Source of the DNA: an uncultured Gammaproteobacteria bacterium
GTDB taxonomy: Bacteria > Patescibacteriota > Patescibacteriia > UBA10025 > JAHIVO01
Assembly (NCBI GenBank): GCA_964415025.1
Contig: CAYPXF010000001.1
Location: 9,390-73,389, forward strand
Reading direction: 5' to 3'
Length of the DNA stretch: 64,000 bases
Position numbers and translations under genes: made by a program. The notes under the pieces were generated by a model that was not told the DNA's origin, did no database searches, and saw only the letters and a list, made by a program, of their open reading frames with translations. This document shows positions 1-62,838 of this stretch, in pieces (positions within the stretch are counted from its first letter, which is position 1; the number at the start of each line of letters is the position of its first letter).

Positions 1-869
1 TAATTAAAGTACTCTTTCAGTTATTCTATTTTGTGCGATTCTTGCTAGTATACGATGTATTTCATTTCTATTTTGGAACTTCGCTTCTGCCATATAATAG
101 AGACTTGCCTATATTAAAATTATTCAATAAAAAGATATTTTTTACATTTCAAGGAAGTGACATCAGGATTTCAAAAGTATCTAATACATTACATTCTGCA
201 CAAACAATTGTATCACAGCATAATAAATGCAACAATATATCAGATGAGATCAAAAAACAAAAAATTAATTTTATCACAAAATATGCTAATAAAACATATA
301 TATTAAATCCGGATTTAAAACTATTCTCTCCAGCATCAGAAATACTACCCTATGCCCATTTATTTCCTAATAAGTGGGTAACAAGAAATAAGTATCATAC
401 CAACAAAACTCACTGGACTATTTTGCACGCACCCACGGATAGAAATATTAAAGGAACTAAATACGTTATCAAATCAGTTGAAGAATTGCAACGACGTGGA
501 TATAAAGTCAGGTTACTCCTCATTGAAAACATATCTCATGACGAAATGTTGCATGCATGCGCAAAGTCTGATATTGTGATCGATCAGTTACGTATTGGGT
601 GGTACGGTGGTTTCGCTGTTGAAATGATGTCGCTAGGGAAACCTGTTTTATGCTATATTGATACCCGCATGAGTCGCTATGTTCCCTATTTCAATCAAAT
701 ACCCATTATAAATGTCACTCCTAGCACACTTACCAATACAATTATCGATTTGATAAAAGATCCATATCGTCAATATATAGTTGGTAATAAAAGCAGAGTA
801 TTTGTTAAAAAAATTCATAACCCTCTTCATATTGCACGTAAGACGCTGAATCATTATTTATCATGCTAA
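1..869 (+). CDS. Glycosyltransferase family 1 (GT-B C-terminal half). The reading frame is open to the window edge, so the gene is probably N-terminally truncated by the window.
   Basis: The frame of the 33..869 ORF stays open back to position 1 and the reported start is GTG. The motif GGFAVEMMSLGKPVLCY resembles the GT1 EGFGLxxLEAMAxGxPVI block. Confidence 0.45.
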   Translation, partial: IKVLFQLFYFVRFLLVYDVFHFYFGTSLLPYNRDLPILKLFNKKIFFTFQGSDIRISKVSNTLHSAQTIVSQHNKCNNISDEIKKQKINFITKYANKTYILNPDLKLFSPASEILPYAHLFPNKWVTRNKYHTNKTHWTILHAPTDRNIKGTKYVIKSVEELQRRGYKVRLLLIENISHDEMLHACAKSDIVIDQLRIGWYGGFAVEMMSLGKPVLCYIDTRMSRYVPYFNQIPIINVTPSTLTNTIIDLIKDPYRQYIVGNKSRVFVKKIHNPLHIARKTLNHYLSC

Positions 870-2350
870 TACAAAACCTGAAACGACTCTCAAAAGACAC
901 TTTAATATACGGTTTCGGCCGTGTTATTGAGTATATTGCTGCTTTCATTTTGCTTCCAGTATTTACTCGTATTTTTTCACCGGCTGATTACGGTATTTTA
1001 GACACACTAAATACGGTTGTATCTGTTATTTCATTATTTTTACTGATGGGGCTAAATTCCGCAACACAAAGATATTATTTCGATTCAGAAAAAGATCATA
1101 AGCAGGGATTGGTGGTGATTTCGACTGCCTTTTGGTTTTTGGCTATAGTAAGTGTTGTTGTTTCATTTATACTGATTTATTCATCCGATACTATTTCGAA
1201 TATATTATTCGATTCTACTGAATACAGCTACCTTATTGCCGTTGCTATCACCGCAATACCATTTATACTTATGGTTTCCTTCATTAAAGATGTGCTTCGA
1301 TTAAAATTTGCACCGTGGAAGTTTAGTACTTTAAGTATTGTACATTTTCTTTTAAATCTTGGAATAGTTATTTTTCTAGTAATTATACTAAAAAAAGGAT
1401 TAGTGGGCAACTACTATGGTGTTTTATTTTCGGTTATTATCACCCTCATTATTTCGATATATCTAATAAGGAATGATATTTCTTTTTTATTTTCAAAATA
1501 TTTTTTAATAAAACTATTAAAATTTGGTTTACCACTTGTTTTTGCAAGTTTTGCTTACTGGGTAATTACTTTTTCTGACAGGTTTTTCATCCTAAAATTA
1601 TCAACCCTTACTGAGCTAGGACTTTATTCAGTTGGAAATCGTGTAGCAACAATATTGATTTTAGTTGTTACGGCTATACACTTAGCTTGGAGTCCTCTTA
1701 TTTTTCAAAAGCACAGAGAAAAAGAATCATCTGCATTTATAGTGAAAACGATGACGTATTCTTTGATTGTTTTTTGTTTTTTTGCCGTAGTACTTACATC
1801 ACTTTCATTTGAAACTCTTACCATTCTCACACCCCGATCATATATAGGGGCAATTTATGTTGTAGGATTATTAACGTTGGGGATTGTTTTTTTAGGAATT
1901 TCAGGTATAGTCACTACTGGACTAACACTAGCTAAGAAAACAAAATATATTACCATTGCTTACATTATTTCAGCTGTTGTAAATATTATTTTAAATGCAC
2001 TTTTAATTCCATCATACGGTATTATTGGAGCATCTGTATCTACGTGCTTTTCATATATATTATTATTTGCTTTATGCTATTATTTTACACAACAATACTA
2101 TCGGCTTTCATTTGAATTAAAAAAATCAATAATAATTATTATTTTAACAGCATTTTTACTGTTTTTGGGTACCTTTGCATCACTCGAAAACATGGTAGTA
2201 AGTATAATGCTCAAACTATCATTAATATTACTATATCCGTTTGTGTTATATTATTTCAATATAATTGATCATAATGAAAAGTTAATTATTAAAAACTATA
2301 TACTAAAAACAATGCATCGTCTCAAAGTAATAATACTTTTTCATCAATAA
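863..2350 (+). CDS. Polysaccharide biosynthesis protein, Wzx-like oligosaccharide flippase (MOP superfamily)
   Basis: 495 aa with about 12-14 hydrophobic segments. The N-terminus (LxKDTLIYGFGRVIEYIAAFILLPVFTRIFSPADYGILD) is typical of the PST/Wzx family. Confidence 0.7.
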   Translation: MLIQNLKRLSKDTLIYGFGRVIEYIAAFILLPVFTRIFSPADYGILDTLNTVVSVISLFLLMGLNSATQRYYFDSEKDHKQGLVVISTAFWFLAIVSVVVSFILIYSSDTISNILFDSTEYSYLIAVAITAIPFILMVSFIKDVLRLKFAPWKFSTLSIVHFLLNLGIVIFLVIILKKGLVGNYYGVLFSVIITLIISIYLIRNDISFLFSKYFLIKLLKFGLPLVFASFAYWVITFSDRFFILKLSTLTELGLYSVGNRVATILILVVTAIHLAWSPLIFQKHREKESSAFIVKTMTYSLIVFCFFAVVLTSLSFETLTILTPRSYIGAIYVVGLLTLGIVFLGISGIVTTGLTLAKKTKYITIAYIISAVVNIILNALLIPSYGIIGASVSTCFSYILLFALCYYFTQQYYRLSFELKKSIIIIILTAFLLFLGTFASLENMVVSIMLKLSLILLYPFVLYYFNIIDHNEKLIIKNYILKTMHRLKVIILFHQ

Positions 2351-2355
2351 TAACT

Positions 2356-3438
2356 ATGCGCACTACAAAACGTACGATACTTTCAATAGTTGGCGCACGA
2401 CCTCAGTTTGTAAAACTTTGGGCACTTGAGAAACACATGAGTATCTTTAACCATATTATTATTCACACCGGACAGCATTATGATTTTAATATGTCAGAAG
2501 CTATATTTAAAGATTTAAATATACCAAAACCACATATTCACTTAAATATTGGATCTGATAAACCAACCTTGCAAGTTTCTAAAATGATATCAGGACTGGA
2601 CGATGTTATTAAGAGCTATGATCCTGATAATATTCTCGTATATGGAGATACAAGCTCAACACTGGCTGGCGCATTGACTGCACGTATGAATAAAATACCG
2701 CTCAGTCATATTGAAGCCGGCATGCGCAGCTATAACGTTATGCCAGAAGAGACTAGCAGGGTTGTGTCTGACCATATTGCTGATTACCTATTTTGTTCTA
2801 CATCTACTGCAATGAACAACTTACAAAATGAAGGCATCTATTCCAAAAGTTACCTTGTCGGCGATCTCATGGCCGATGCCTTACAAACAATGCGCCCACT
2901 CATTAATCAAAATTCATCATTACTGCAGAAATATAAAGTTATGAAAAATGAATATTTACTACTGACTGTACATCGCGAAGATAATACGATAAATAAAGAA
3001 AAATTATCAAATATTCTGCACGCATTCTCTAAAATAAATTATACGACAATATTTCCGGCACATCCGCGTACTAAAAAGGCAATTTCTGATTTTGGATTAA
3101 TGGATATCATTACAAAAGCCCCAAATATTATGATGATAGACGCAGTACCTTATAGCGAGCTGCTTACATTACAAAATTATGCAAAAAAGATCATAACTGA
3201 TTCTGGAGGCATGCAGAAAGAGGCCTATTTGCTCCGTAAACCTTGTATTACACTTCGACTTGAAACGGAATGGGTTGAAACAGTAGAAGATAATGCAAAT
3301 ATTCTAGTTGGGACAAATAAACCTGCTATCATACAGGCCATTAGACAGTTTGATATTGACGAGTCAGCCAGCAAACTTCGTTATGGTGAAGGCCGTGCAG
3401 CTGAAAAAATTGCAAAAATAATTAATTCAACTGGATGA
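2356..3438 (+). CDS. wecB: UDP-N-acetylglucosamine 2-epimerase (non-hydrolysing)
   Basis: N-terminal ILSIVGARPQFVKLWAL...HTGQHYDFNMS and 360 aa length match the WecB/MnaA family. Confidence 0.85.
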   Translation: MRTTKRTILSIVGARPQFVKLWALEKHMSIFNHIIIHTGQHYDFNMSEAIFKDLNIPKPHIHLNIGSDKPTLQVSKMISGLDDVIKSYDPDNILVYGDTSSTLAGALTARMNKIPLSHIEAGMRSYNVMPEETSRVVSDHIADYLFCSTSTAMNNLQNEGIYSKSYLVGDLMADALQTMRPLINQNSSLLQKYKVMKNEYLLLTVHREDNTINKEKLSNILHAFSKINYTTIFPAHPRTKKAISDFGLMDIITKAPNIMMIDAVPYSELLTLQNYAKKIITDSGGMQKEAYLLRKPCITLRLETEWVETVEDNANILVGTNKPAIIQAIRQFDIDESASKLRYGEGRAAEKIAKIINSTG

Positions 3439-4718
3439 AAAAAATTCTCATAGTTAGTTATTACTTTCCTCCGATTGGCTCAAGCGGTACAGTTAGGATA
3501 TCTAATTTTGTCAAATATTTACATAAATACGATTGGACATGCCACGTATTAACCGTAAAAAATATTTTTCATCATGCAATAGATGATACATATATACACG
3601 ATGTGGAAAAAGCATCACAGGTTCACAGAACTTTTCATATCGAACCAAGGTCTTTCTATCGTCAATCTCATGATTATTCCTTAAATATTAAACCCTCAAG
3701 GATAAAAAGGAATATCATTAAATTTTTTCGTTTCCTAATAAAATTATTTTTAGTTCCGGATGAAATAATTCTATGGTCACCATTTGCAATAATTAAAGGG
3801 ATTTATATTATTTATAAATATAATATTGACATTATTTTTTCCAGTTCACCGCCACCAACCGTACATATTATCGCATATTTTCTAAAAATATTTACTGGTA
3901 AAAAATTAGTTGTTGATTTTAGAGATGAATGGATAAATGACCCATTTAGCTCAATGCCAACAAGTGTACATCGCCGGATTAATTTATATTTAGAAAATCG
4001 TATACTGCAAAAAGCTGATGCTATAGTGGCTGTTACTCCAACAATATTTGAAGAAATGAATACACAATATCATCATAAATTCCGTACTATTACAAATGGA
4101 TACGATCCAGAAGATTTTCAGATCGGTCCCCATGCATCCGATCCCACAAAGAAGCTAACTTTTTATTATCCTGGTACATTTTATAAACATAGAACACCTT
4201 TTTATTTCTTGCAAGCTTTGCTATTATTATTAAAAGACCAAAAGATTAACAAAGATGAAATTTCAGTAATCTTCCAAGGTAATATTTCGCCAGATACATA
4301 CAATCAGTATATTCTTAATAATCATGAATTACTAGAAATTATAAAAATTAGACCGTATGCTGACCACCCTACGGTTATTAAGAATATGATCTCAGCTGAT
4401 ATTTTACTTTTAGTTATCAGCACACAGAGCGGGTTAGGTTCTCTGTCTGGTAAAATTTTCGAATATATCGCCACTGGAAAACCTATTTTAGGGCTTGTTC
4501 CCGCAAATGGTGCTGCTGCCTCTTTGATTAGGAAAACACAAACAGGCATTGTGGTTTCTCCAGAAAATATTTCCGATATATATAATAGTATTTATGAATT
4601 GTATAAAAGGTGGAACAAAAGTAGCTTACAAATTTATCCACATAAACCATTAATTAAAAAATATTCGAGAGAATCTCAGACAAAATTATTAATACGTGTT
4701 TTTCAAAGCCATATATGA
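3435..4718 (+). CDS. Glycosyltransferase family 1 (GT4-like)
   Basis: 427 aa. Starts MKKILIVSYYFPPIGSSGTVR, the typical GT4 N-terminal glycine-rich loop. Its start overlaps the upstream gene by 4 bp. Confidence 0.6.
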   Translation: MKKILIVSYYFPPIGSSGTVRISNFVKYLHKYDWTCHVLTVKNIFHHAIDDTYIHDVEKASQVHRTFHIEPRSFYRQSHDYSLNIKPSRIKRNIIKFFRFLIKLFLVPDEIILWSPFAIIKGIYIIYKYNIDIIFSSSPPPTVHIIAYFLKIFTGKKLVVDFRDEWINDPFSSMPTSVHRRINLYLENRILQKADAIVAVTPTIFEEMNTQYHHKFRTITNGYDPEDFQIGPHASDPTKKLTFYYPGTFYKHRTPFYFLQALLLLLKDQKINKDEISVIFQGNISPDTYNQYILNNHELLEIIKIRPYADHPTVIKNMISADILLLVISTQSGLGSLSGKIFEYIATGKPILGLVPANGAAASLIRKTQTGIVVSPENISDIYNSIYELYKRWNKSSLQIYPHKPLIKKYSRESQTKLLIRVFQSHI

Positions 4719-5725
4719 CGACCACTCCACACATTGGGATTATAGTATTAAATTGGAATGGTATTGATAACACCCGTCGCTGTCTTACATCCTTACAAAA
4801 AATCACTTACTCCAACTATTCTATATTTCTTGTTGACAATGGATCTACAATTAATGAATCGGATGTCTTAAAAAAGGAGTATCGGGAGATAATAGCCATT
4901 CGAACTAAAAATAATTTAGGCTTCTCTGGTGGAAATAACATTGGTATAAAATATGCACTATATGATTCCGATAATTATTGCGATTATATTCTAATTTTGA
5001 ACAATGATACAGTAGTTGAAAATAACTTTCTTTCTATCATGGTTAGAACTGCAATTCAAGACAACTCTGTCGGTATGGTAAGTCCAACCATGTTATCTAT
5101 GAATAATCATAATACTATTGATAATATGGGATTATGCCTCACCCTATCTGGTATTCCATTTAACAGAAAAAAGAATAAAAGAATTTTATTATGCCCTTCT
5201 GGCGGCGCGGCTTTGTATTCACGTCAAATGCTAAAAGATATATGCCTCGACGGTGACTATTTTGATTCCACTTTTTTTGCTTATGCTGAAGATTATGACA
5301 TAGGAATGAGAGCACTCCAAGCTGGCTACAAACCTGCACATGCGAATAACGCCATTATATATCATAAGGGTTCTGCATCAACTGGGTTAATGAGTGATTT
5401 TGCAATCTACCATACCTATCGAAATTTATTGCTAGTTATAGTTAAAGACTGGCCTTTCCTACTACTTGTTATCAATGCCCCCTGGATAATATTGATGCAA
5501 ATATGTTTAATCTTCCTCCATAGTAAACGCGGAACTATTCATATTCTACTTAATGCATACCGAGATTTTTTCAAATACATTCCACAATACATAAAAATGA
5601 GGAACATTATTCGTTCCCATAAACAGATAAGTTCTATTGTATTGCTTCGATATTTTGAAAAACGTGTAGTCCTACTGGAATATATACGAAATGCGATCTA
5701 TACTAACGGACAGTCTCAGGATTAA
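4715..5725 (+). CDS. Glycosyltransferase family 2
   Basis: GIIVLNWNGIDNTRRCLTSL...FLVDNGSTINES is the GT2 signature. There is an overlapping start. Confidence 0.75.
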   Translation: MTTTPHIGIIVLNWNGIDNTRRCLTSLQKITYSNYSIFLVDNGSTINESDVLKKEYREIIAIRTKNNLGFSGGNNIGIKYALYDSDNYCDYILILNNDTVVENNFLSIMVRTAIQDNSVGMVSPTMLSMNNHNTIDNMGLCLTLSGIPFNRKKNKRILLCPSGGAALYSRQMLKDICLDGDYFDSTFFAYAEDYDIGMRALQAGYKPAHANNAIIYHKGSASTGLMSDFAIYHTYRNLLLVIVKDWPFLLLVINAPWIILMQICLIFLHSKRGTIHILLNAYRDFFKYIPQYIKMRNIIRSHKQISSIVLLRYFEKRVVLLEYIRNAIYTNGQSQD

Positions 5726-7979
5726 ATTCAAATATATATATATCATCAATTTTTTTATATGTGCCCATTAATTCTATCTGTTTCTTGAGTGTATAGTCAC
5801 TAATCCATCTCTCCTCGGTCACAAAATAACATTTATCAGTCTTCGTAATATCGAGGGCTTTTTGTAAATCTATTTTTTTTGGATCTCGAAACAAATTTTG
5901 CTGAATTTCAACAAGCGCAGGTTGACTAAATTCTTCACCAATAGTAAATCCGCCCCCTATTATTTTTTTTGCTGATATGCTCTCTAATGCTAATAGTGGC
6001 CAAGTATCACTGATAACACAATATCTAGTTTCATCCTTTATCCTTTTATAGATATACTCCATTGCTTTCAATTCTGAAGCAGAAACCATCCGCAGTACTG
6101 GACCTGAAACATAATTAAAAAGTAATATAATTGAGATCATGATTGCTAAGCTAGATACAATAATCTTTTTATTATTTGCAAGCAAATAAATATTATAAAC
6201 TCCAAATACAACTAAGGGCAGTAAAAAAAGATATAATAGCAAGTCAATTCTGCTAGATAATGGCGCTGGACCATTAATAATATACCGGCTTCCGATATAC
6301 AACACTAGAAAAAAAGACATGACAAATATTAATATAATATTTCTGAATATTTTCGCTATTTTTAAATAAACTATTCCACTGATTATTAATACTAATAAAA
6401 ATAAGTTAGCAATAAATGATGTAGTAATTGATTTTATTGGATACCAATGCATCAGCTGTGGTATATTGTTTAAATTATAAAAGAATGTACCTGATGCAGC
6501 TATAGAACCAAACTGTGTTATACCAAATATATTAAGTATCCATCTGCCGAGTGACCGAGGTGTTTCCCAACTTAATAGACTAGCAGTGTCAAAAGCTGAG
6601 CTAAGATTAAAAATATTTGCATAATATATATCCAAACTTATAATTATTGTGCTTATTGTTAATGATCCTACTGCGATAATTATACAATGATAAATCTTTT
6701 TGCTTAGTTTTATAGTTGTTACCTTTTTTACTGCCTTGTAAAGTACAATAATGCTAAGTAAAAGAACCCATATAACCAAGGCTATGATATAATTTAAATA
6801 CAACATCAATGTAAGAATACCTATGAATACGTAACCCTTTTTTGTAGGCACCTTACTTACATCTAATAATACCAACGCTGCAAATATAAATAAAAGATGT
6901 CCAAATGAGTATGGCACGGTAATAGCCCCATACACTTGTAGAACCCAAAATATTGTACTGGAAAATGATAAAAGTAGAGGTATAATTTTACTATGTGGAC
7001 ATACTATTTTACCAATTTTGTATAATAATATCGGTGTGAATAATGACCATAATAAAAATACCAGTACTAAATCAATCCAAAATATATCAATCGCGGCTAT
7101 CTTACTAATAATTACAGTTATCGCCCACTGGTTTGCGTATGATGTTTTATTACCTACCAAGAAGACTGAAGGTATTTTAACCTGACCAAATTCTTTATAT
7201 GAAATAGTATCATCGAGAAAACTTGGCGATACTACATTTCCTTCAGCAATATATCTCTCGGTAGCTATATGCCTCCATTTATCACCTCCGTATCCAACTT
7301 CGTATATAATTGGTAAGTAACTATGGATAAGTACTGAAAATAAAATAATTATAATGAGAATTACAGTACTTTTTAATTTAGTAAATATTAAATATAATAT
7401 TATAAAACTTGATAATAATATCACTACTAGGTATAAATTTGGAATTACTTCCCACGGTGCCATAATATAATTACTCGTGCGAGCTCCATATAGTAATAAA
7501 AAACCAATAATAAATAATAAGGGCAAGCATATTATATATATCCTTGGTACATTTAATAAATTTATTTCTTCGTAATTGTTATTTATTTCAGTACGGCTTT
7601 TATTATATATGCCTAGTAGCCAATTAGCAGCAGATATTAATACAGATACTATGAGTAATATTATAAAAATTACAACATCGGATAATTTTAAAAAGACAAT
7701 AAAAAATGCGCCTAAAAAAGCGATCGAATATATATAGAATAAAGTACTTAATGCATTATTAAATTGACCTTTAACAAAATTAAAATTACTAAATATACCA
7801 CCAAGCCATAAAATACAAATTATTGAAAATAAAAGAAATAGCACAATACCAATGGCTGATATTTGGTATGTGGTTAAATTTACATAAATGCCAATACTAA
7901 AGAGAATATTTATTAGCGTAAATATTCCATATTTATTAACACGAACAGTATCTGCTAACTGAATAAGTAATTGTTTCAT
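5703..7979 (-). CDS. Large polytopic membrane protein with a soluble C-terminal domain. It may be a GT-C type glycosyltransferase or a polymerase.
   Basis: 758 aa with about 18 hydrophobic helices followed by a ~150-aa hydrophilic C-terminus. It sits in the polysaccharide locus. No diagnostic motif was recognised. Confidence 0.45.
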   Translation of the reverse strand: MKQLLIQLADTVRVNKYGIFTLINILFSIGIYVNLTTYQISAIGIVLFLLFSIICILWLGGIFSNFNFVKGQFNNALSTLFYIYSIAFLGAFFIVFLKLSDVVIFIILLIVSVLISAANWLLGIYNKSRTEINNNYEEINLLNVPRIYIICLPLLFIIGFLLLYGARTSNYIMAPWEVIPNLYLVVILLSSFIILYLIFTKLKSTVILIIIILFSVLIHSYLPIIYEVGYGGDKWRHIATERYIAEGNVVSPSFLDDTISYKEFGQVKIPSVFLVGNKTSYANQWAITVIISKIAAIDIFWIDLVLVFLLWSLFTPILLYKIGKIVCPHSKIIPLLLSFSSTIFWVLQVYGAITVPYSFGHLLFIFAALVLLDVSKVPTKKGYVFIGILTLMLYLNYIIALVIWVLLLSIIVLYKAVKKVTTIKLSKKIYHCIIIAVGSLTISTIIISLDIYYANIFNLSSAFDTASLLSWETPRSLGRWILNIFGITQFGSIAASGTFFYNLNNIPQLMHWYPIKSITTSFIANLFLLVLIISGIVYLKIAKIFRNIILIFVMSFFLVLYIGSRYIINGPAPLSSRIDLLLYLFLLPLVVFGVYNIYLLANNKKIIVSSLAIMISIILLFNYVSGPVLRMVSASELKAMEYIYKRIKDETRYCVISDTWPLLALESISAKKIIGGGFTIGEEFSQPALVEIQQNLFRDPKKIDLQKALDITKTDKCYFVTEERWISDYTLKKQIELMGTYKKIDDIYIFEFNPETVR

Positions 7980-9121
7980 GTTGCGTTATAAATTGCTACT
8001 AATTTATCTACTATAACATCCCATGAGAAGTGTTTCACTACTTTCTTTTTACCATTAGCTCCATATTCTTTTTTTAATTCTTCATTGTTTATAATAATGC
8101 GTATCTTTTTTGCAAGTTCTCTATCATTCCCTACCCGAAACGTAAGACCGTCCTTTCCTGTATTAATCAAGGTTCGAACCCCAGGCAAATCAGAAGTTAT
8201 AACCGGCGTACCGCACGCCATTGCCTCCAGCGTTACCAGGCCATATGCTTCTGTTTTATCAGTTGAAGGTAGTACTAATACATCAGCAACGTTATAAATA
8301 TCTATCAGTGTATCATTATCTACTTTATTTAAAAAGAATACCCTCGACTTAAGTGCGAGTTTATTGGATTGTTCCTCATATTCTGACTGTAAATTTCCTT
8401 TTCCAACAATAATTAATTTTGCTTCTGGCAACTCTTTCATGGCATTGAGCAATACGTCCAATCCTTTGAAATAGTGCGCTTCGTCAAGGCCGCCGACAAA
8501 AAGAACTATCTTTTTTTTATCTTTTCTGATTTTCTCAACTATTTCTCCTGTTATTTCTTTTTCTCTGAACTTATTTATATCTACACCATTAGCAAGGGGT
8601 ATAAATTTGTTCTCATGAGCACTATAGTATTTATATATGTCAGAATGTTCAAAATAATCCCAGGTTGATACAAGTACTTTATTCGCCCGCATAACAATTA
8701 GTTTGGTAAATACTGTCTTATATATCCAGAATAAATATCGTACCCATTTTCTACCCACTAAGTCCATTTGGTATTGTAATATAATCCTTACTTTTTTATC
8801 TAACAATAAATATAAATATAGAAACTCTAATCCAATAAACGGATAATGTATATGTACAATATCGTATTCTTTTATTTCTTTGCTAATATTAGGTAACAGG
8901 GAGGCATTCCCAAAGGTCAACAATGATTTTTTTTTAATTACTCGATATTTTGCGGGGTGATACATGTCCTGTATCTCATTTTTATATGACGGTATAATGA
9001 CATCAACATTCCACCCTCTTTTCGCCAGCCCCTCTACCTGATTTTTACATACATTACCAATCCCTCCCTTATACGGAGGGAATGTCGATACCACATGTGC
9101 TACTCGTAGTTTTTGTTTCAT
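7976..9121 (-). CDS. Glycosyltransferase family 1 (GT4)
   Basis: KVAHVVSTFPPYKGGIGNVCKNQVEGLAKRGWNVDVI is the N-terminal GT4 motif, and the C-terminus has a VLPSTDKTEAYGLVTLEAMACGTPVITSD block. Confidence 0.8.
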   Translation of the reverse strand: MKQKLRVAHVVSTFPPYKGGIGNVCKNQVEGLAKRGWNVDVIIPSYKNEIQDMYHPAKYRVIKKKSLLTFGNASLLPNISKEIKEYDIVHIHYPFIGLEFLYLYLLLDKKVRIILQYQMDLVGRKWVRYLFWIYKTVFTKLIVMRANKVLVSTWDYFEHSDIYKYYSAHENKFIPLANGVDINKFREKEITGEIVEKIRKDKKKIVLFVGGLDEAHYFKGLDVLLNAMKELPEAKLIIVGKGNLQSEYEEQSNKLALKSRVFFLNKVDNDTLIDIYNVADVLVLPSTDKTEAYGLVTLEAMACGTPVITSDLPGVRTLINTGKDGLTFRVGNDRELAKKIRIIINNEELKKEYGANGKKKVVKHFSWDVIVDKLVAIYNAT

Positions 9122-16011: not shown

Positions 16012-18152
16012 CGTATAGTCGCCACATTAACCCCGCCCCGGAACGTCTCGGCATAGGCGAAAAAGTGCGACTGCAGCTGGCCCTGGTAATTAAATACCCT
16101 GACATGCGGACCGCCGGTAAATCCGGCACCCGCGATAATCTCCGCGGTCCCGTCTCCGTCTAAGTCTCCTGCTGCTACGTTCACCCCGCCCCGGAACGTC
16201 TCGGCATAGGCGAAAAAGTGCGACTGCAGCTGGCCCTGGTAATTAAATACCCTGACATGCGGACCGCCGGTAAATCCGGCACCCGCGATAATCTCCGCGG
16301 TCCCGTCTCCGTCTAAGTCTCCTGCTGCTACGTTCACCCCGCCCCGGAACGTCTCGGCATAGGCGAATAATTCTGTTTGTTCATTGCCATATATATCAAA
16401 CACTCTAATATGCGGACCACCGCCATTGCCGGCTCCGGTGATTATTTCATCAATACCGTCGCCGTCGACATCGCCGGCCGCCACGTGGACTCCGCCGCGG
16501 AATGTCTCGGCATAGGCAAAGAACTGACTAATGACGCTGCCGTCCTGTTTAAATACTCTGACCTGCGGACCACCGCCATTGCCGGCTCCGGTGATTATTT
16601 CATCAATACCATCGCCGTCGACATCGCCGGCCGCCACGTGGACTCCGCCGCGGAATGATTCTCCATAAGCAAAAAATTGGCTGATCACCTCTCCGTTTGT
16701 CCTGAATAACCGAACCTGCGGCCCGCCAGTATCACCTGCGCCGGTGATAATCTCGTGAAAGCCATTCCCGTCAGTATCACCAGAGGCAACATATACCCCT
16801 CCCCGGAATTGTTCGCCATAAGCGAAAAAGTGCGACTGGAGTTCACCGTACAGATCAAACTGCCTGACATGAGGCCCGCCGGTATATCCCGCACCGACGA
16901 CAATATTTTCTGACGCTGGAATTAAATTGCCAAATACAGCGCCGATATTGATCCGTCCTGCTCCCAGTCCAGCTTCTGAAACAGCAGCAGCGTGGGATTT
17001 TAGCATTTGTTCGATTTGCGCATTAGTAAGGAGCGGGTTATGCGCTTTTATCAGTGCGGCAGAACCGGCTACCACCGGTGTCGCCAGCGACGTTCCTGAC
17101 CAGCCACTGGCATAATACGATTCGAGGCTTTGGTCCGGCGCATAGACTATAGTTGACAGGTAGCTTGTCGCTGGTGCGGCAATATCTACGCATGTATCGC
17201 CGTAATTTGAGGCATTGCTTATTTGGCTGTTAGCGTATGTTTTGAAACGGGCGTCATTCTGATCAGTTCCGCCAACACCAATCACATTGTCGTTGCACAC
17301 CGGGTAGCGGGGCTGTTGGTCTAGATTTATATTGTTATTCCCGGCGGCGGCAAAAATCATGACACCGGCCGCGGTAGCTTCATTAATAATTTGCGCTAAT
17401 ACGGTGTCAGTCTCATTGCCGACAAAACTTAGATTAATAATATCCGCTCCATTGCGCATGGCATACCGTACCCCGGCAGCAATATCACCAGTATCTCCCA
17501 TGCCCGCGTCATTCAGCACCCGAACGCTCATCATGCGTACGGTCCAATTCATGCCAGTTATGCCTTTGTTATTATTGCCCTTGGCCCCGGCAATACCGGC
17601 CACGACGCTCCCGTGATGCACTGCTGCGGCAGTCCATGATCCGCTGAACTGCGGCTGGGGGTCGTTTTGGTCACCGACAAAATCCCAGCCATAATAATCG
17701 TCTACATACCCATTTGCGTCATCGTCTATGCTATTGTTCGGTATTTCATCAGTATTATGCCAAATATTTTGCTGGAGGTCCGGATGGTCTAGATCAATAC
17801 CAGTATCCAGCACCGCTATGACAATACCGTCATCACCAGTGGTGGTATCCCATGCTTGCGGGGCATTAACTTTTTCTAAATACCACTGGTTTTGGTAATA
17901 GGTATCACCTGGCACAACTGCTAACTCGTAAGTGCGGTTTTCCCCTGCGTAGTCTACAACAGGATCAGCATTTAGACGCTGGAGCAATGCGCCAGTGTCT
18001 TCGTGTGAACCGAGCCGTACCGTATGAAATGTTTCCTGATGCTTTAGTTTGACGACAATGCTGTTTCCTTTTGGCGGGCTAGCCACCGCTGGCTGTCCCA
18101 GCAGCAGTCCGCACGCGATTACTGGTAGTAGTACAGTGGCTAATACTTTCAT
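16008..18152 (-). CDS. Secreted subtilisin-like serine protease (peptidase S8) with C-terminal FG-GAP/VCBS-type 51-aa repeats
   Basis: Signal peptide MKVLATVLLPVIACGLLLGQPAVA. The catalytic triad contexts are VLDTGID (Asp), HGSVVAGIAGA (His) and GTSLATPVVAGSAAL (Ser). There are about 6 repeats of FFAYAETFRGGVxVAAGDxDGDG..EIIxGAG.GGP.VRVF. Confidence 0.85.
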   Translation of the reverse strand: MKVLATVLLPVIACGLLLGQPAVASPPKGNSIVVKLKHQETFHTVRLGSHEDTGALLQRLNADPVVDYAGENRTYELAVVPGDTYYQNQWYLEKVNAPQAWDTTTGDDGIVIAVLDTGIDLDHPDLQQNIWHNTDEIPNNSIDDDANGYVDDYYGWDFVGDQNDPQPQFSGSWTAAAVHHGSVVAGIAGAKGNNNKGITGMNWTVRMMSVRVLNDAGMGDTGDIAAGVRYAMRNGADIINLSFVGNETDTVLAQIINEATAAGVMIFAAAGNNNINLDQQPRYPVCNDNVIGVGGTDQNDARFKTYANSQISNASNYGDTCVDIAAPATSYLSTIVYAPDQSLESYYASGWSGTSLATPVVAGSAALIKAHNPLLTNAQIEQMLKSHAAAVSEAGLGAGRINIGAVFGNLIPASENIVVGAGYTGGPHVRQFDLYGELQSHFFAYGEQFRGGVYVASGDTDGNGFHEIITGAGDTGGPQVRLFRTNGEVISQFFAYGESFRGGVHVAAGDVDGDGIDEIITGAGNGGGPQVRVFKQDGSVISQFFAYAETFRGGVHVAAGDVDGDGIDEIITGAGNGGGPHIRVFDIYGNEQTELFAYAETFRGGVNVAAGDLDGDGTAEIIAGAGFTGGPHVRVFNYQGQLQSHFFAYAETFRGGVNVAAGDLDGDGTAEIIAGAGFTGGPHVRVFNYQGQLQSHFFAYAETFRGGVNVATIR
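16031..16367. repeat. Tandem 153-bp direct repeat. Two units are 100% identical (16031-16183 and 16184-16336) and a 31-bp third partial copy follows. The repeat encodes the last FG-GAP units of the protease.
   Basis: Direct reading of the sequence. The period is 153 bp (51 codons). Identity breaks at 16368 into older, diverged units. Confidence 0.9.
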
Positions 18153-18163
18153 ATAGGTGTTCC

Positions 18164-19405
18164 TTATTGGCTGGTCAGCGTGAGCAATGTTTGCTCTGTA
18201 GCGCCATCACGCACATAGGTAACAGTCACCTGACTGCCCGGTGTGTATTGTTTAAGTATGATGTCCAGCGATACGTCATTAGTAATGGCAGTATCGTCAA
18301 TCGCTGTAATTATGTCACCGGCCTGTAAATCAGATCCAGCCGCCGGACTGCCGGGGATAATCGCCTCCTGATCAGCCGTAACCGCACTGATTAATGCGCC
18401 ATTTAATATACCGTACGTCTGTTCGCCCAGGCCGATTACGTCATCGAGTAAAACATAACGAACACCAAACTGCGGTCGCAGCAGGTCACTGTCTGTTAAT
18501 ATGTTCTGTAATATCGGGCGGATATGGTACAGCGGCAATACCGTACTGTTCATCTCACCGGCGCTTATCCCGATGATCTCTCCTTCAGCGGTCACTACCA
18601 GTGATCCGGGCATTATCAAATTTGCACTGTCTAATAACAGCCGTTCGCTGAACTGCTCGCTCGATCGCTGCAATGATGCAGTGTCAGTAACAGGATGATA
18701 ATCAGTGTCTACGGCTGTTGCTGGAGTAACTATTACCTGCTGCTGTTGGCCGCTTTTATTGACTGCGTAGACAGCCGCCGGCGCGCTCGTATCCTCTGCT
18801 GAAGCAATCTGAACGGTTGAGAGATTTGCGGCATCGATTTTCATAAAAATCATGCCGGTAGCCGGATCAGAACGCAGGGCGATAGTTTGGTACAGTCCTC
18901 CGTCATGCACCAACACATGGTACGTGCCGGACGTGTCCAGTGCTGCGGATGTCACTAAATACCCGTCCTGTGTCAGCACAAAAGCAGTGCCAAGCGCTTC
19001 TGCGGCAATATGTGATTCTGCTGCTGTGGTAATGTTTCGTTCGCTAAATATGAGCGCCATGGACGGCGCGGTAGCTATAACTTGTCGGGGAATTTCCTGT
19101 GCCTCCTGCTGCTGACGTACTGGAGTGACGGTAATGCCGTTACCGTCGTGATTAAGCGTGATTATGCCCAGCTCGTTTAAAAAAGGAATGTCAGCACCAT
19201 AGGCAAAGAGCAATAATAATCCTAAAATACCGCCAATCACTCCAAACAGGGCGGCAACTATGACAGTGACAATCCTGCCGCCAGCTAATTGCTGACGAGG
19301 TTTTTCAATCGTGGCTAATTCCTCTTTATAAAGAGAGTTAATCTCTTCATCTTTTTGATACTTTTGCTGGGCTTTTGGTGAAGTGGGGCTTGTTTTTGAT
19401 TTCAT
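18164..19405 (-). CDS. Membrane-anchored HtrA/DegP-like protein with a C-terminal PDZ domain. It is possibly catalytically inactive.
   Basis: N-terminal cytoplasmic tail plus one TM helix. The central region aligns by eye to the DegP protease domain, but the triad positions read TSAALD (His missing), GMIFMKI (Asp missing) and MPGSLVV (Ser shifted). The C-terminal PDZ region (GxxxGDIITAIDDTAI) is intact. Confidence 0.5.
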   Translation of the reverse strand: MKSKTSPTSPKAQQKYQKDEEINSLYKEELATIEKPRQQLAGGRIVTVIVAALFGVIGGILGLLLLFAYGADIPFLNELGIITLNHDGNGITVTPVRQQQEAQEIPRQVIATAPSMALIFSERNITTAAESHIAAEALGTAFVLTQDGYLVTSAALDTSGTYHVLVHDGGLYQTIALRSDPATGMIFMKIDAANLSTVQIASAEDTSAPAAVYAVNKSGQQQQVIVTPATAVDTDYHPVTDTASLQRSSEQFSERLLLDSANLIMPGSLVVTAEGEIIGISAGEMNSTVLPLYHIRPILQNILTDSDLLRPQFGVRYVLLDDVIGLGEQTYGILNGALISAVTADQEAIIPGSPAAGSDLQAGDIITAIDDTAITNDVSLDIILKQYTPGSQVTVTYVRDGATEQTLLTLTSQ

Positions 19406-58253: not shown

Positions 58254-58514
58254 TTAGTCTTTTTTACCCTGTACTTCAGTAATTGTCAGCTCTCTGCCTT
58301 TGCCTGGCTTAATAACAAGTTCTGCTTTTTCTGCGATAGTATTTTTTTTGACCAGATCAAAATTAAATAAGAGATTTTCCGGGGATAATTCTTCATTATG
58401 CGCTACGATTTTCCCCAAACGAACAGTAACAGTATCAACTGTTTTTAAATTATTTTCTTTAGCTGTGTGCAGGACGGCTTTGACAATGTCCTGCGCCGCT
58501 ACGAGGTCATGCAT
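58254..58514 (-). CDS. HypA-like hydrogenase nickel-insertion protein lacking the zinc-finger domain
   Basis: N-terminal MHDLVAAQDIVKAVLHTAKENNLKTVDTVTVRLGKI resembles the HypA N-terminus (MHE...). The protein is only 86 aa and has no cysteine residues. Confidence 0.55.
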   Translation of the reverse strand: MHDLVAAQDIVKAVLHTAKENNLKTVDTVTVRLGKIVAHNEELSPENLLFNFDLVKKNTIAEKAELVIKPGKGRELTITEVQGKKD

Positions 58515-58552: not shown

Positions 58553-58903
58553 TTAGTTAATCGTCTTTTTAAATGCGTTGAGTTTTTTAATCAGCAGTTC
58601 TGCTTCTTTGTATAGATCAACGAGTAATTTGTCAGCTATAAACTCTCTTTCTTTACAGAACTGTAATAATGAAACAGTCTCGAGCGCCGACTTAATGGCT
58701 ATATCGATAAAGTTTCTGAAATCGCGATTTGTCGTACCGCCGGAACCTTCAGCGATATTATTGGAAATAGAGACTGCAGCTCTTTTCAGCTGCGAAGACA
58801 TCCCAAATAACTCTTCCTTTGGTAAGGTATTAGCAAAATCATATAGTCTGTTACCATAAGCTATAGCTAATTGCCAAATTTCTAATTGCTCAAACCTGAA
58901 CAT
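58553..58903 (-). CDS. Four-helix-bundle protein (the family frequently encoded in 23S rRNA intervening sequences)
   Basis: FEQLEIWQLAIAYGNRLYDFANTLPKEELFGMSSQLKRAAVSISNNIAEG. The start was trimmed to the internal ATG at 58903. Confidence 0.7.
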   Translation of the reverse strand: MFRFEQLEIWQLAIAYGNRLYDFANTLPKEELFGMSSQLKRAAVSISNNIAEGSGGTTNRDFRNFIDIAIKSALETVSLLQFCKEREFIADKLLVDLYKEAELLIKKLNAFKKTIN

Positions 58904-58962
58904 ATGTTTTCTTCTTACTAGTACACGCAATACACTACAAGCTTTATGCCACGAGCTACACG

Positions 58963-60219
58963 CTAGTGAGTAGCACACGTCATGCACGGATCATATGCCC
59001 GGATCATCATGGCCAGCTTGCGCTGGTTAGCCGTACTCATTGTTTTCATCGAGCCCATATACTGCCGCAGGTCATCTTCCAGGTTATTAATAAACTGCGC
59101 GGTCGGGGTAATGATATTAACATTTTTCAATACGCCGTTTTTATCTGTTTCGTAATAATGTAATAAAATACCGCGCGGCGCCTCGATGGCGCCTACACCT
59201 TTACCAGCGCGTACTTTATATTTTTCCATGGGTTTAATGTGTTTTGTTTTAAAATACTGCTGTAATAATTTTTGCGCCTCTTCGACAAAATGGATCATTT
59301 CAATCCCCTGGCAATACACATTATAAAATGAATTGGTAATGGGCAGCTTAATATTAATATGCTTATAAGCCTGCCTGGCAATAGGATTTAATTGCTGGTG
59401 ATTATTATTAATCCGCGACAACGCGCCCACAAAATAAGCCTTGCCCTGATACTCCGTGCGCTTAACATAATCATCATCGCTGTGGATTTCCACGACTTTT
59501 TTCATGAATTGCTTGGGCGTCATGTCCAGCCCCTGGGTAGAGCCAATCCGACCGTCATAAAAGGCGTATTCTTTTGGATTAATCAGTGAAATATATTCAG
59601 TTGTACGGTTAAATTTATTGAATTTTAAATGTGAAATAAAATGCGCCAGCTCGACAGCTCCCTGGAGCGCTTCCTGGCTTTGCTCGTATAGCTCATGCAA
59701 CCGGCGTTTATCCGGCATCTTCAGAAAACCGCCTACCTGCGAATTAACCGGATGCAGGGCCCGGCCGCCGATAATTTCCGTAATCAAATTGCCAAACTTG
59801 CGGATAGTGAGGGCATGAGCAGAATATTCCGGCGCAATATCAAGTAAGTCCAGGGCTGAATCCTTGCCATAGAAATCAGGTATACTCATAAAATACGCGT
59901 GCACCCCGTGGCTGGTCAGCATTTGGCCCAGCATCATGAGTTTGCGCAGAACAACGGTCGGCTGCTGGACCTTTACTTTCATGGCATCTTCTATCGCTTT
60001 GATGGCCGTCAGGTTATGCACCACCGGACACACGCCGCAAATACGCGACGTCACCAGCGGCCCGTCCATATAGTTACGGCCGATCAGCACGCCCTCCATT
60101 AATCGTGCGCCTTCTAACGTTTGGTAGCGCGCCTCGGCCATATTACCGGACTTGAGCGCTCCCCAGAAGGTCGCGTGTCCCTCAATACGTGTAATGTGTT
60201 TTATTTTAACAGTTTTCAT
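58963..60219 (-). CDS. [NiFe]-hydrogenase large subunit, short form, with no C-terminal extension
   Basis: Has RIEGH, the L1 motif RICGVCPVVH, and the L2 motif DPCMTCATH followed directly by the stop codon. 418 aa. Confidence 0.9.
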   Translation of the reverse strand: MKTVKIKHITRIEGHATFWGALKSGNMAEARYQTLEGARLMEGVLIGRNYMDGPLVTSRICGVCPVVHNLTAIKAIEDAMKVKVQQPTVVLRKLMMLGQMLTSHGVHAYFMSIPDFYGKDSALDLLDIAPEYSAHALTIRKFGNLITEIIGGRALHPVNSQVGGFLKMPDKRRLHELYEQSQEALQGAVELAHFISHLKFNKFNRTTEYISLINPKEYAFYDGRIGSTQGLDMTPKQFMKKVVEIHSDDDYVKRTEYQGKAYFVGALSRINNNHQQLNPIARQAYKHINIKLPITNSFYNVYCQGIEMIHFVEEAQKLLQQYFKTKHIKPMEKYKVRAGKGVGAIEAPRGILLHYYETDKNGVLKNVNIITPTAQFINNLEDDLRQYMGSMKTMSTANQRKLAMMIRAYDPCMTCATH

Positions 60220-60274: not shown

Positions 60275-61084
60275 TTATTTTTTCTTTTTAACCTCCTGCT
60301 GTCTATACCACTGTTCCTGAATCCCGAATATCTGCAGAATGTGTTCCAGTTGCTTGCGGCTGATGAGTTTTAATAACTGCTTTTCCAGCTGCCTGGTATC
60401 ATAGCCAGGTAAAATACCGCGGCAGCCTTTGCAAAAGAATTTGGAGTTCAGGCAGACCGCGTTGCACCCGCCACGAATGACCGGACCCAGGCACGGCTCG
60501 CCTTTTTGCAAGAGGCATTCGTTGCCATTGAGCTGGCATTCGTAGCATACCGGATTTTCCAGAATTTGCGGCGGGACGCCTTCGCGGATCGCGTTAAGCA
60601 CAGCCACAAAGTCTTCACCGATCGGCGGACAGCCAGGGATGATGAAGTCCACCTTGACGAAACGACTGATCGGCCTGATATTAGGATTAAAAACTTTTTG
60701 GTATGTCTTGGGAAACTGATACCGCACCGCCTTTTCTTTATCCATGTAATTTTTAATATTGGGGATAACGCCGAAATGCGCGCAGGCGCCGATGCCGATC
60801 AAGTAATCAGCCCGCTGACGTATTGCTTTCAGAGACTTGATATTCGCCTTAGTCAGCGGCGCGCCCTCGATAATAGCCACGTCATAGTGCGCGTCTTTTT
60901 TCTTTTCCTCCATGATGATAAAAAAATCTCCCAGCTCAAAATGGTCGATCGAGGCGATAAACTCCTTGCCCATGTCCAAAATAGACACCGAACAACCGTC
61001 GCAGGAAGTTAGTCCAACAATAGCGACTTTGAGTTTTTTCTTGCTACTTTTCTTCGACATTTTTATATTACTATTTCTACTCAT
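60275..61084 (-). CDS. [NiFe]-hydrogenase small subunit
   Basis: LTSCDGCSVS, GACAHFG and IIPGCPP are the Fe-S ligands and the GCPP motif. 269 aa with a K-rich N-terminus. Confidence 0.8.
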   Translation of the reverse strand: MSRNSNIKMSKKSSKKKLKVAIVGLTSCDGCSVSILDMGKEFIASIDHFELGDFFIIMEEKKKDAHYDVAIIEGAPLTKANIKSLKAIRQRADYLIGIGACAHFGVIPNIKNYMDKEKAVRYQFPKTYQKVFNPNIRPISRFVKVDFIIPGCPPIGEDFVAVLNAIREGVPPQILENPVCYECQLNGNECLLQKGEPCLGPVIRGGCNAVCLNSKFFCKGCRGILPGYDTRQLEKQLLKLISRKQLEHILQIFGIQEQWYRQQEVKKKK

Positions 61085-61616
61085 TTATAATATTTGTTAT
61101 ATGAGTGTTAATTCCACTGTCAGCAGCCAACTGCGTAAAATCATTAATCTCTTTAATTATCGAACCGCCAATATTTCTTACCTCTTCAATTGATTTAGCT
61201 TTTTTTGTATCAGCGTGCATATATAAATTTCTATAACGATGATACATGCTTCCAATAATTATTATGTGATCAAGCAGCTCTTTTTTTGTTTTTAAATCAA
61301 TATTCCTCTTGTAATCTTTTGAAGTCTGTTCAGAATTAGAAATCATATCAATATATTCAGAAAATGCTTCCTTGTTCTTACCTTCATTATCATATAGGTA
61401 TCTCCCTAAATGTTTTGGCTTTATTTCTGGGATAAAAGGAATATAGCCTACTGATTGCAAAATATCAAACAAATATTTTTCAAAAGCTTTACATATTGGT
61501 TGAAGGTATAATGAAAAATCGTGAAGATTAATCCTTTTAATACAATCATTATCAAGTAATAGTAGAAAGTCATAAACCCAATCCACAAAGTCATCATATT
61601 CTATAAGGTATTTCAA
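61077..61616 (-). CDS. Hypothetical protein encoded by an AT-rich insert in the hydrogenase operon. It contains an Rx4H motif (possible HEPN-like).
   Basis: 179 aa. The gene is about 33% GC, against about 50% for its flanks. It has MYHRYRNLYMHAD in its C-terminal third. Confidence 0.4.
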   Translation of the reverse strand: MKYLIEYDDFVDWVYDFLLLLDNDCIKRINLHDFSLYLQPICKAFEKYLFDILQSVGYIPFIPEIKPKHLGRYLYDNEGKNKEAFSEYIDMISNSEQTSKDYKRNIDLKTKKELLDHIIIIGSMYHRYRNLYMHADTKKAKSIEEVRNIGGSIIKEINDFTQLAADSGINTHITNIINE

Positions 61617-61701
61617 GACTTTTGTATCAAAATGCTTCGAAAGTAAAGAATACCTAGGATCAGATTCAATTTTATGGCCTAAAGCAATATCTTCTAATCT
61701 T

Positions 61702-61917
61702 TTATCCCTTACTATAAGAATTAAAAAGTTTTAATCGTTCTGTTGCTTCTTTTTTATCTAGTTTGTAGACCGCGAAATTATTTTCATTCATCACATAGTC
61801 CCCTACCTTTACTTCCGGAACCAGTCGCGTATCGAGCGTGTGCGTGTCCTCACCGCAGGCAACGGTGGCCTGCGTACCTTTGAGTTTTATTATTTTGTGG
61901 GGGATGGTGAGACACAT
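61702..61917 (-). CDS. hypC: Hydrogenase maturation factor HypC/HupF
   Basis: Starts MCLTIP (conserved N-terminal Cys2), and is 71 aa. Confidence 0.8.
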   Translation of the reverse strand: MCLTIPHKIIKLKGTQATVACGEDTHTLDTRLVPEVKVGDYVMNENNFAVYKLDKKEATERLKLFNSYSKG

Positions 61918-62028: not shown

Positions 62029-62838
62029 CTAACTACTAAACATCACTCCCTCTCTGGACATTTTAATCTTTTGTAAATCATCTTCCCGCCACAGCCGGTG
62101 GAAATCAACGTCTTTCTTTGTTTCATCGATTATCTGGCCAGTCATGTCCACATTAAAAAAAGTTTCCTTGGCATAGTCGATAGTCGCTACCTTATCACCC
62201 AGCACTTGCTTGATCGTCCGTTGCATAAATGCCTTCTGGTCCTGCTGCTGCTGGAGCTGTCGGGCTAGGAGCTGTAATGGTTTTGTGTCAGCACTGGCTA
62301 TAATAACACCGAAATGATGAAATACTGTTTGTCCAAGCCGAACCTGTACTGCTCCTGGCACTAGTACGTGGGAAAATGTAACCGTTTGGTTACAAACTAT
62401 TACCTCTACTTCAGCTAATTGGCGCTGGTCAATAGAGCGCAGTGATTTGATAGTACCGATGGTCAGCACGTGGGCCAGGGCATAAGACGGCCCGAACAGC
62501 AGATGTGACTGATTTTCCTCGACCGCATCCACGTGATCCAGGGCAAAGCATTCTAACATATTAACCGCACTGATGCGTGTCAATCCACGTTCGGCGGCAT
62601 AAGCGGCGATAGATGAGGGAAAAGCCGTAATAATATGGGAGGAAATATCAAGTAATAATACCGGCTGGCCGGTCAAAAACTTCGCCAGATTGACGTCTGC
62701 CTTGCAGCCAGGATGGAGAAATAAATGCACCAGTATCTCCACCGCGCCCGGCTCCAGAATAATATTCTCGAAATTATCAAACGACAGCCGCCGGGCTTGT
62801 TCGAGATTTTTTAATATTGCTTGGGTATGAGAATTCAT
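62029..62838 (-). CDS. Hypothetical protein co-located with hypC. The size and layout are reminiscent of DUF4213+DUF364 putative metal-chelation proteins, which is very tentative.
   Basis: 269 aa with no hard motif. An ArsR-type operator palindrome lies 13 bp upstream of its start. Confidence 0.35.
   Translation of the reverse strand: MNSHTQAILKNLEQARRLSFDNFENIILEPGAVEILVHLFLHPGCKADVNLAKFLTGQPVLLLDISSHIITAFPSSIAAYAAERGLTRISAVNMLECFALDHVDAVEENQSHLLFGPSYALAHVLTIGTIKSLRSIDQRQLAEVEVIVCNQTVTFSHVLVPGAVQVRLGQTVFHHFGVIIASADTKPLQLLARQLQQQQDQKAFMQRTIKQVLGDKVATIDYAKETFFNVDMTGQIIDETKKDVDFHRLWREDDLQKIKMSREGVMFSS

Follow-up and report, generated by a model that had tools for sequence, protein, structure and literature searches.

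RnlA and LsoA, the toxins of the RnlAB and LsoAB type II toxin-antitoxin anti-phage systems (Pfam families PF19034 and PF18869; PDB entries 7AEX, 6Y2R, and 5HY3), were placed in the HEPN superfamily by Anantharaman et al. (PMC3710099). HEPN domains carry a conserved Rx4-6H motif, usually with a polar residue after the arginine (PMC3710099 and PMC8266594), and some of them are non-catalytic binders (PMC3710099). In RnlA, residues R255, E258, R318, and H323 are needed for RNase activity and toxicity and are located at the canonical HEPN dimer interface; an alternative dimer has been reported as an inactive resting state (PMC8266594). HepS from the Salmonella Gifsy-1 prophage is a solo HEPN abortive-infection protein that is kept inactive by its oligomeric conformation (PMC13043305). 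Here, we describe a gene for a predicted HEPN protein in a 64,000-nt stretch of DNA from an uncultured bacterium with a Patescibacteria-like genome (contig CAYPXF010000001.1, positions 9,390 to 73,389; referred to as the window), where it is located on the minus strand between hypC and the small subunit gene of a [NiFe] hydrogenase. With a probability of roughly 0.6, we read it as a horizontally acquired, stand-alone HEPN endoribonuclease of the RNase LS (RnlA/LsoA) type that would serve as toxin or abortive-infection effector. An RnlA-type HEPN fold with catalytic-type residues is, taken by itself, very likely.

Searches covering approximately 15 billion proteins plus metagenome contigs revealed a small protein family. 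In 5.8 billion clustered proteins, only the window protein itself and a 213-aa protein, P0002, were found, the latter being the closest homologue with 58–60% amino acid sequence identity. Two more proteins at approximately 30% identity emerged when 1.84 billion representatives were scanned in full with HMMER; a profile search gave a fifth member, and a scan of metagenome contigs the sixth. The six members comprise 190–213 aa, and none carries a name. Invariant in all six are D66, S68, P73, C75, K76, A77, E79, K80, R162, N163, L164, H167, and D169. Among these, K76 and E79 are part of the CKAFEK region (C75–K80; 61476..61493, minus strand), and R162 and H167 form the Rx4H motif within RNLYMHAD (R162–D169; 61209..61232, minus strand).

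The presence of the Rx4H peptide MYHRYRNLYMHAD in the open reading frame (ORF), which the original prediction had taken as a sign of a HEPN protein, was confirmed. The motif alone is not significant because its frequency in the window is at chance level: it was found in 18 of the 54 window ORFs of at least 150 aa, corresponding to approximately 0.24 occurrences per 179 aa. What stands above chance is the invariance of RNLxxHxD over six homologues at approximately 30% identity, together with the fold match described in the following.

All six members matched the Pfam family PF19034 (RnlA-toxin_DBD) with E-values of 1.9e-5 to 0.056 at subthreshold scores of 14.3–25.5 bits, and one member matched PF18869 (HEPN_RnaseLS) with 16.6 bits at a cut-off of 29. 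An AlphaFold2 model calculated with two close sequences only was unusable (predicted local distance difference test score, pLDDT, 44.8); after addition of three distant members, the resulting five-sequence alignment gave a usable model with a pLDDT of 79.9 and a predicted template modeling score of 0.80. In this model, approximately 60 aa of extra helices precede a predicted HEPN core of approximately 150 aa, an all-alpha up-down helical bundle as in other members of the superfamily. The conserved Rx4-6H motif with a polar residue after the arginine is likewise present (R162-N-L-x-x-H167, six of six members). A Foldseek comparison with the PDB gave weak E-values, with LsoA and RnlA as the matches of highest probability (0.95–0.96), and the top match in a viral structure library was annotated as 'RNaseLS-like protein' (probability 1.00). 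Thus, no confident non-HEPN fold was obtained, and the model fits LsoA and RnlA best.

The family alignment was further compared by hhalign with a six-sequence RnlA/LsoA alignment composed of the E. coli K-12 protein, four plasmid records, and one database fragment (P0007), which resulted in an E-value of 5.6e-4 at a low match probability. K76, E79, R162, and H167 were paired with RnlA R255, E258, R318, and H323, with three of the four residues being identical: DYSxxLxPxCKAxEK was aligned with D245...R255..E258, and YRNLxxHxD with ERHSLFHME, the RnlA sequence at positions 318–323 being RHSLFH. With E. coli RnlA alone as the counterpart, the hhalign result was not significant (E 0.34). When the RnlA HEPN domain was used as query, a word-indexed protein search was of little use, as it retrieved only three enterobacterial fragments.

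RnlA and LsoA are thus the nearest known proteins, and the family shares with them the catalytic-position residues, with K in place of R255, and plausibly acts in the manner of their HEPN domain. In contrast to the approximately 350–360 aa of RnlA and LsoA, its members lack the N-terminal TATA-binding protein (TBP)-like domains NTD and NRD, in place of which they carry the approximately 60 aa of unrelated helices. True RnlA loci that were compared all carry RnlB or LsoB directly downstream, whereas the genes downstream of family members encode the hydrogenase small subunit, an AsnRS-like protein, DnaK, a DUF1653 protein, or an unrelated 53-aa ORF product. The hosts differ as well, with RnlA and LsoA in enterobacterial prophages and plasmids and the family in uncultured bacteria including the Patescibacteria-like genome studied here. 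Because the Pfam threshold is not reached and both the N-terminal TBP-like domains and the RnlB/LsoB antitoxin are missing, we place the family, as a minimal, partner-less variant, at the margin of the RNase LS branch within the HEPN proteins and outside the RnlAB toxin-antitoxin systems. With HepS, it has in common the solo architecture: both are small HEPN proteins that carry a canonical Rx4-6H motif and lack an antitoxin. HepS thereby offers a precedent for a polypeptide that is sensor and effector in one (PMC13043305). No HepS structure was among the top PDB matches, and the likeness concerns architecture. Structural similarity to HEPN/MNT proteins (HepT/MntA) and to other HEPN proteins (AF0298, PDB 2HSB; Csx1) was much weaker than that to RnlA and LsoA, and no MNT nucleotidyltransferase partner is located beside any family member.

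The gene had been predicted as a 540-bp ORF (61077..61616, minus strand) encoding 179 aa from a TTG codon (61616-61614), and the same call is found in public assemblies. It is flanked upstream by hypC (61702..61917, minus strand; Pfam HupF_HypC, E 3.5e-18) and downstream by the hydrogenase small subunit gene (60275..61084, minus strand; Pfam Oxidored_q6, E 5e-23). Farther downstream, the large subunit gene, a gene for a 23S-rRNA-intervening-sequence protein (IVP) of the four-helix-bundle type, and a short hypA follow. The GC content of the ORF is 28.3% (23% at third codon positions), in comparison with 46.9% for the small subunit gene, 42.1% for hypC, and a window mean of 43.5%. Position, composition, and motif therefore bear out the original prediction of an AT-rich, Rx4H-encoding ORF between the two genes; the contrast in composition is even stronger than the approximately 33% in an operon of approximately 50% given there, and the figures themselves have to be corrected to 28.3% versus 42–47%. 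The predicted 8-nt overlap of the stop codon with the small subunit start (ATGAGTAG) holds for the first in-frame ATG; an alternative ATG at 61060 would leave a 16-nt gap after the stop codon of the HEPN gene instead. The operon had also been called essential, a label that is not established for the hydrogenase locus.

The hydrogenase locus was compared with that of the five closest Patescibacteria metagenome-assembled genomes (L009–L013), which show small subunit identities of 69–80% and the same gene order, EamA-(arsR)-unk269-hypC-[ ]-smallSU-[ ]-largeSU-[ ]-hypA-PGK-enolase, where the brackets denote junctions. The HEPN gene is absent from this locus in all five. L009 and L010 have approximately 55–155 nt between hypC and the small subunit gene without any ORF, and a 323-aa gene separates their small and large subunit genes. 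In L011–L013, the hypC/small subunit junction carries an unrelated gene of host-like GC content encoding a membrane-anchored protein of 245–290 aa, accompanied in L013 by a second gene of 421 aa. The membrane-anchored protein contains acidic repeats of the D-x-D-x-D-G type. L011 has an additional 243-aa gene between unk269 and hypC, and the hydrogenase locus of the relatives is overall a mosaic with variable cargo at every intergenic junction. As the HEPN gene is absent in the relatives and the junctions are variable, it represents a lineage-specific insertion at a cargo-tolerant junction. Together with a GC content that is not hydrogenase-like, this is best read as horizontal acquisition and precise insertion between hypC and the small subunit gene of a Patescibacteria-like genome. 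The original view of a recently acquired HEPN-like gene is thereby supported and can be sharpened to the RnlA/LsoA branch. No terminator, flanking direct or inverted repeat, or Rfam element was detected at the window gene, and thus neither a mobility signature nor an RNA antitoxin; two short, low-score repeats were the only ones found near it, neither of them flanking nor forming an antitoxin-like tandem array.

The same position had also given rise to the suggestion of a novel hydrogenase accessory factor. Apart from the location between hypC and the small subunit gene and the resulting cotranscription, nothing speaks for a role in hydrogenase maturation. Conserved co-occurrence with hydrogenase genes was not found, since the five closest relatives keep the same hydrogenase locus without the gene, and none of the other five family members adjoins hydrogenase genes. 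The foreign composition and the predicted fold of an RNase toxin argue against this function as well, which we regard as effectively refuted.

The 5′ boundary of the 179-aa ORF, which is also that of the public annotation, is probably too short. Translation of the 33 codons preceding the TTG matches the N-terminus of P0002 without gaps (21 of 33 residues identical, 64%), which begins with an ATG at the position of an ATA codon in the window (61713..61715, minus strand, inside the last hypC codons). The identities to P0002 at the three codon positions are 0.61/0.70/0.42 in this extension and 0.67/0.79/0.42 in the remainder of the gene, indicating that the extension evolved as coding sequence. 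It contains the family-invariant residues L25, F29, and V33, which are kept in distant members too. Because the upstream codons match P0002 residue for residue with a coding-type pattern, the conserved coding unit is probably 61077..61715 (minus strand; GC content 28.6%), with 212 codons from the ATA (61715-61713) to the stop codon TAG (61079-61077). Conserved coding sequence hence continues 99 nt beyond the originally predicted end, and overlaps the last 14 nt of hypC including its stop codon. The ATA is not an assembly error, as two further assemblies, obtained from different runs, show it as well (L002 and L003); the sole difference between assemblies is synonymous. The reading frame remains open up to 61730, i.e., nine codons into hypC. 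A frameshift fusion of hypC with the HEPN gene was therefore considered, and no supporting signal was seen. The C-terminal tail of HypC beyond LKLF differs among the relatives. Possible options for the window copy are a start at the ATA, perhaps coupled to hypC termination, a start at the internal TTG, or attenuation of the gene.

The other members of the family were found in diverse contexts. P0004 (31% GC) is located between aspS and an AsnRS-like gene (57% GC) with 14 nt separating it from one neighbor and a 4-nt overlap with the other. The member at L023/L024 (25% GC) occupies the X position of an hrcA-grpE-hsp20-X-dnaK operon (41–46% GC), and P0002 (30% GC) lies between a small membrane ORF and a DUF1653 gene with flanks of 43% GC. 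P0003 is followed by the unrelated 53-aa ORF, and P0005 is located on a short AT-rich contig. Family members thus have 25–31% GC throughout, in hosts of 29–57% GC. No neighboring gene is common to the six loci, and the small neighbors (the 53-aa ORF, DUF1653, and a 77-aa fragment) are related neither to each other nor to known antitoxins. The L023/L024 member is bracketed by two near-identical, perfect 34-nt palindromes, GGAGCT[C/G]AGCTCCGAAGCTTCGGAGCT[G/C]AGCTCC (L024, approximately 1585–1620 and 2755–2790; also in L023), and further hairpins resembling repetitive extragenic palindromes fill a 520-nt upstream spacer. These palindromes may act as terminators or have been left behind by mobile repeat elements; the flanks of the window copy contain nothing of the kind.

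A doubtful though conceivable generalization would be that an antitoxin-less RNase LS-type HEPN gene spreads as a promoter-less, AT-rich single-gene cassette into housekeeping operons. As part of the same joint claim, it would be inserted precisely between genes of conserved, highly expressed operons, borrowing their transcription and perhaps being translationally coupled, so as to be expressed yet hard to delete, and its product would be gated by conformation or an infection signal and not by a partner protein. Such a pattern fits three of the six contexts (hypC/hydrogenase, aspS/AsnRS-like, and grpE-hsp20/dnaK), a sample that is too small, with most contigs too short, to establish it.

By analogy to established HEPN biochemistry, a homodimer of the window protein would join two Rx4H motifs to a metal-independent endoribonuclease site, and cellular and/or phage RNA may then be cleaved in a toxic or abortive-infection response. 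In place of an RnlB-type antitoxin, the protein may be restrained by its own conformation, i.e., an inactive resting oligomer, until a signal opens it. Low expression may add to this restraint, as the operon-embedded position and the non-ATG start would fit weak expression. With no promoter or terminator of its own, the gene would be transcribed with the hydrogenase operon, and translation would begin either at the internal TTG or at the ATA, in the latter case possibly through coupling to hypC termination.

Several observations weigh against a functional RNase LS-type toxin. At the level of homology, all PF19034 scores are below the gathering cut-off of 27 bits, the hhalign probability was only 30%, and RnlA R255 is replaced by an invariant K in the family. 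A search of PDB sequences with hidden Markov model profiles found no RnlA or anything else relevant, and the alignment behind the predicted structure is very shallow. Searches in NCBIfam, PADLOC, and PHROGs gave no meaningful match for the protein, NCBIfam scores being below threshold like those of Pfam, and a scan of viral contigs revealed no relative. The search for a cognate antitoxin, as originally proposed, yielded neither an antitoxin nor an immunity partner, and none of the neighboring genes of the members resembles RnlB; that a constitutively cotranscribed RNase should be tolerated without an antitoxin is a difficulty for this reading. Finally, none of the codons ATG, GTG, and TTG is present at the conserved start of the window copy.

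This last point also bears on an unlikely alternative, in which a solo toxin gene entered the operon and persists in the window as a remnant, attenuated or in decay, having survived only because the change of the start codon from ATG to ATA leaves little or no full-length protein, the ORF being still intact as the event is recent. Such an origin would fit the position of the ATA exactly at the ATG of the closest homologue, its reproducibility across three assemblies, and the ATG start of all five other members; it would also fit the missing antitoxin and the loss of the invariant L25, F29, and V33 from a protein started at the next canonical codon, the TTG. On the other hand, the 212-codon frame contains neither stop codon nor frameshift, the catalytic and all other invariant residues are intact, and the only difference between assemblies is silent. 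Moreover, the ATA overlapping the hypC stop codon could serve through termination-reinitiation coupling, and the TTG form would retain residues 64–212 (helices from H68 onward in the model), which comprise the HEPN core and each of the four catalytic-position residues. A non-toxic HEPN-fold protein that binds or processes RNA in a host role, e.g., by trimming or stabilizing the operon transcript, is improbable. The absence of an antitoxin and of any PADLOC hit would be in line with such a role, as would the repeated occurrence in housekeeping operons (hydrogenase, aspS/AsnRS-like, and grpE-hsp20-dnaK) and not in recognizable defense islands, and non-catalytic HEPN binders have their precedent (PMC3710099). 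However, the catalytic-type residues are invariant, and the extremely rare and patchy distribution of the family, its AT-rich composition irrespective of the GC content of the host, and its absence from close relatives represent the pattern of a mobile selfish or defense gene and not that of a housekeeping factor.

Further observations were made in the surroundings of the gene. A second small gene for an all-helical protein (58553-58987, minus strand; most likely 58637-58987; 38% GC) interrupts the locus between the large subunit gene and hypA and encodes the 23S rRNA-intervening-sequence/four-helix-bundle protein (Pfam PF05635, E 4e-30; TIGR02436). Among the relatives, an IVP gene is located at the same junction in L010 with only approximately 35% identity and before the large subunit gene in L009, and L013 has none. 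In L012, an ORF (8657-9064) lies between the intact large subunit and hypA genes, at the junction corresponding to that of the window IVP gene. It joins a HypA-like N-terminus of approximately 61 aa with a second copy of the 77 C-terminal large subunit residues and looks like a rearrangement scar. The window HypA (58254-58514, minus strand) is a cysteine-free protein of 86 aa that matches only positions 1–66 of the 112-position Pfam HypA profile. Its zinc-binding half appears to be missing, and the short form of approximately 85 aa is kept in L010, L012, and L013. The gene directly upstream of hypC (62029-62838, minus strand) encodes a 269-aa protein without any match in Pfam, NCBIfam, or PADLOC that is conserved in all five relatives (54–60% identity); it is a better candidate than the HEPN gene for an uncharacterized hydrogenase-linked factor.

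In the genome of the window (L002), tandem paralogous genes for cofactor-independent phosphoglycerate mutases (519 and 528 aa; 16145-19260) follow the enolase gene and are part of a block of glycolysis, acetate kinase, and PTAC-domain genes right after the hydrogenase locus. At the other end of the window, a stretch of approximately 9 kb (1-9000) with 26–36% GC, in comparison with approximately 45–50% in most of the window, harbors a surface-polysaccharide cluster with a Polysacc_synt flippase, a UDP-GlcNAc 2-epimerase, and several GT2/GT4 glycosyltransferases; this stretch, too, was probably acquired horizontally as an island.

Annotators should not count the gene located between hypC and the small subunit gene among the hydrogenase genes. 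That a uniformly AT-rich gene has repeatedly been inserted tightly into housekeeping operons represents an unusual pattern of gene mobility. If active, the window protein would be smaller than any known RnlA/LsoA-type HEPN RNase, and it would imply that the RNase LS catalytic domain works, and is tolerated, without TBP-like domains and RnlB, which bears on the regulation of HEPN toxins. An active enzyme would also provide a defense or toxin candidate for Patescibacteria (candidate phyla radiation, CPR), the small genomes of which contain few recognized defense systems.
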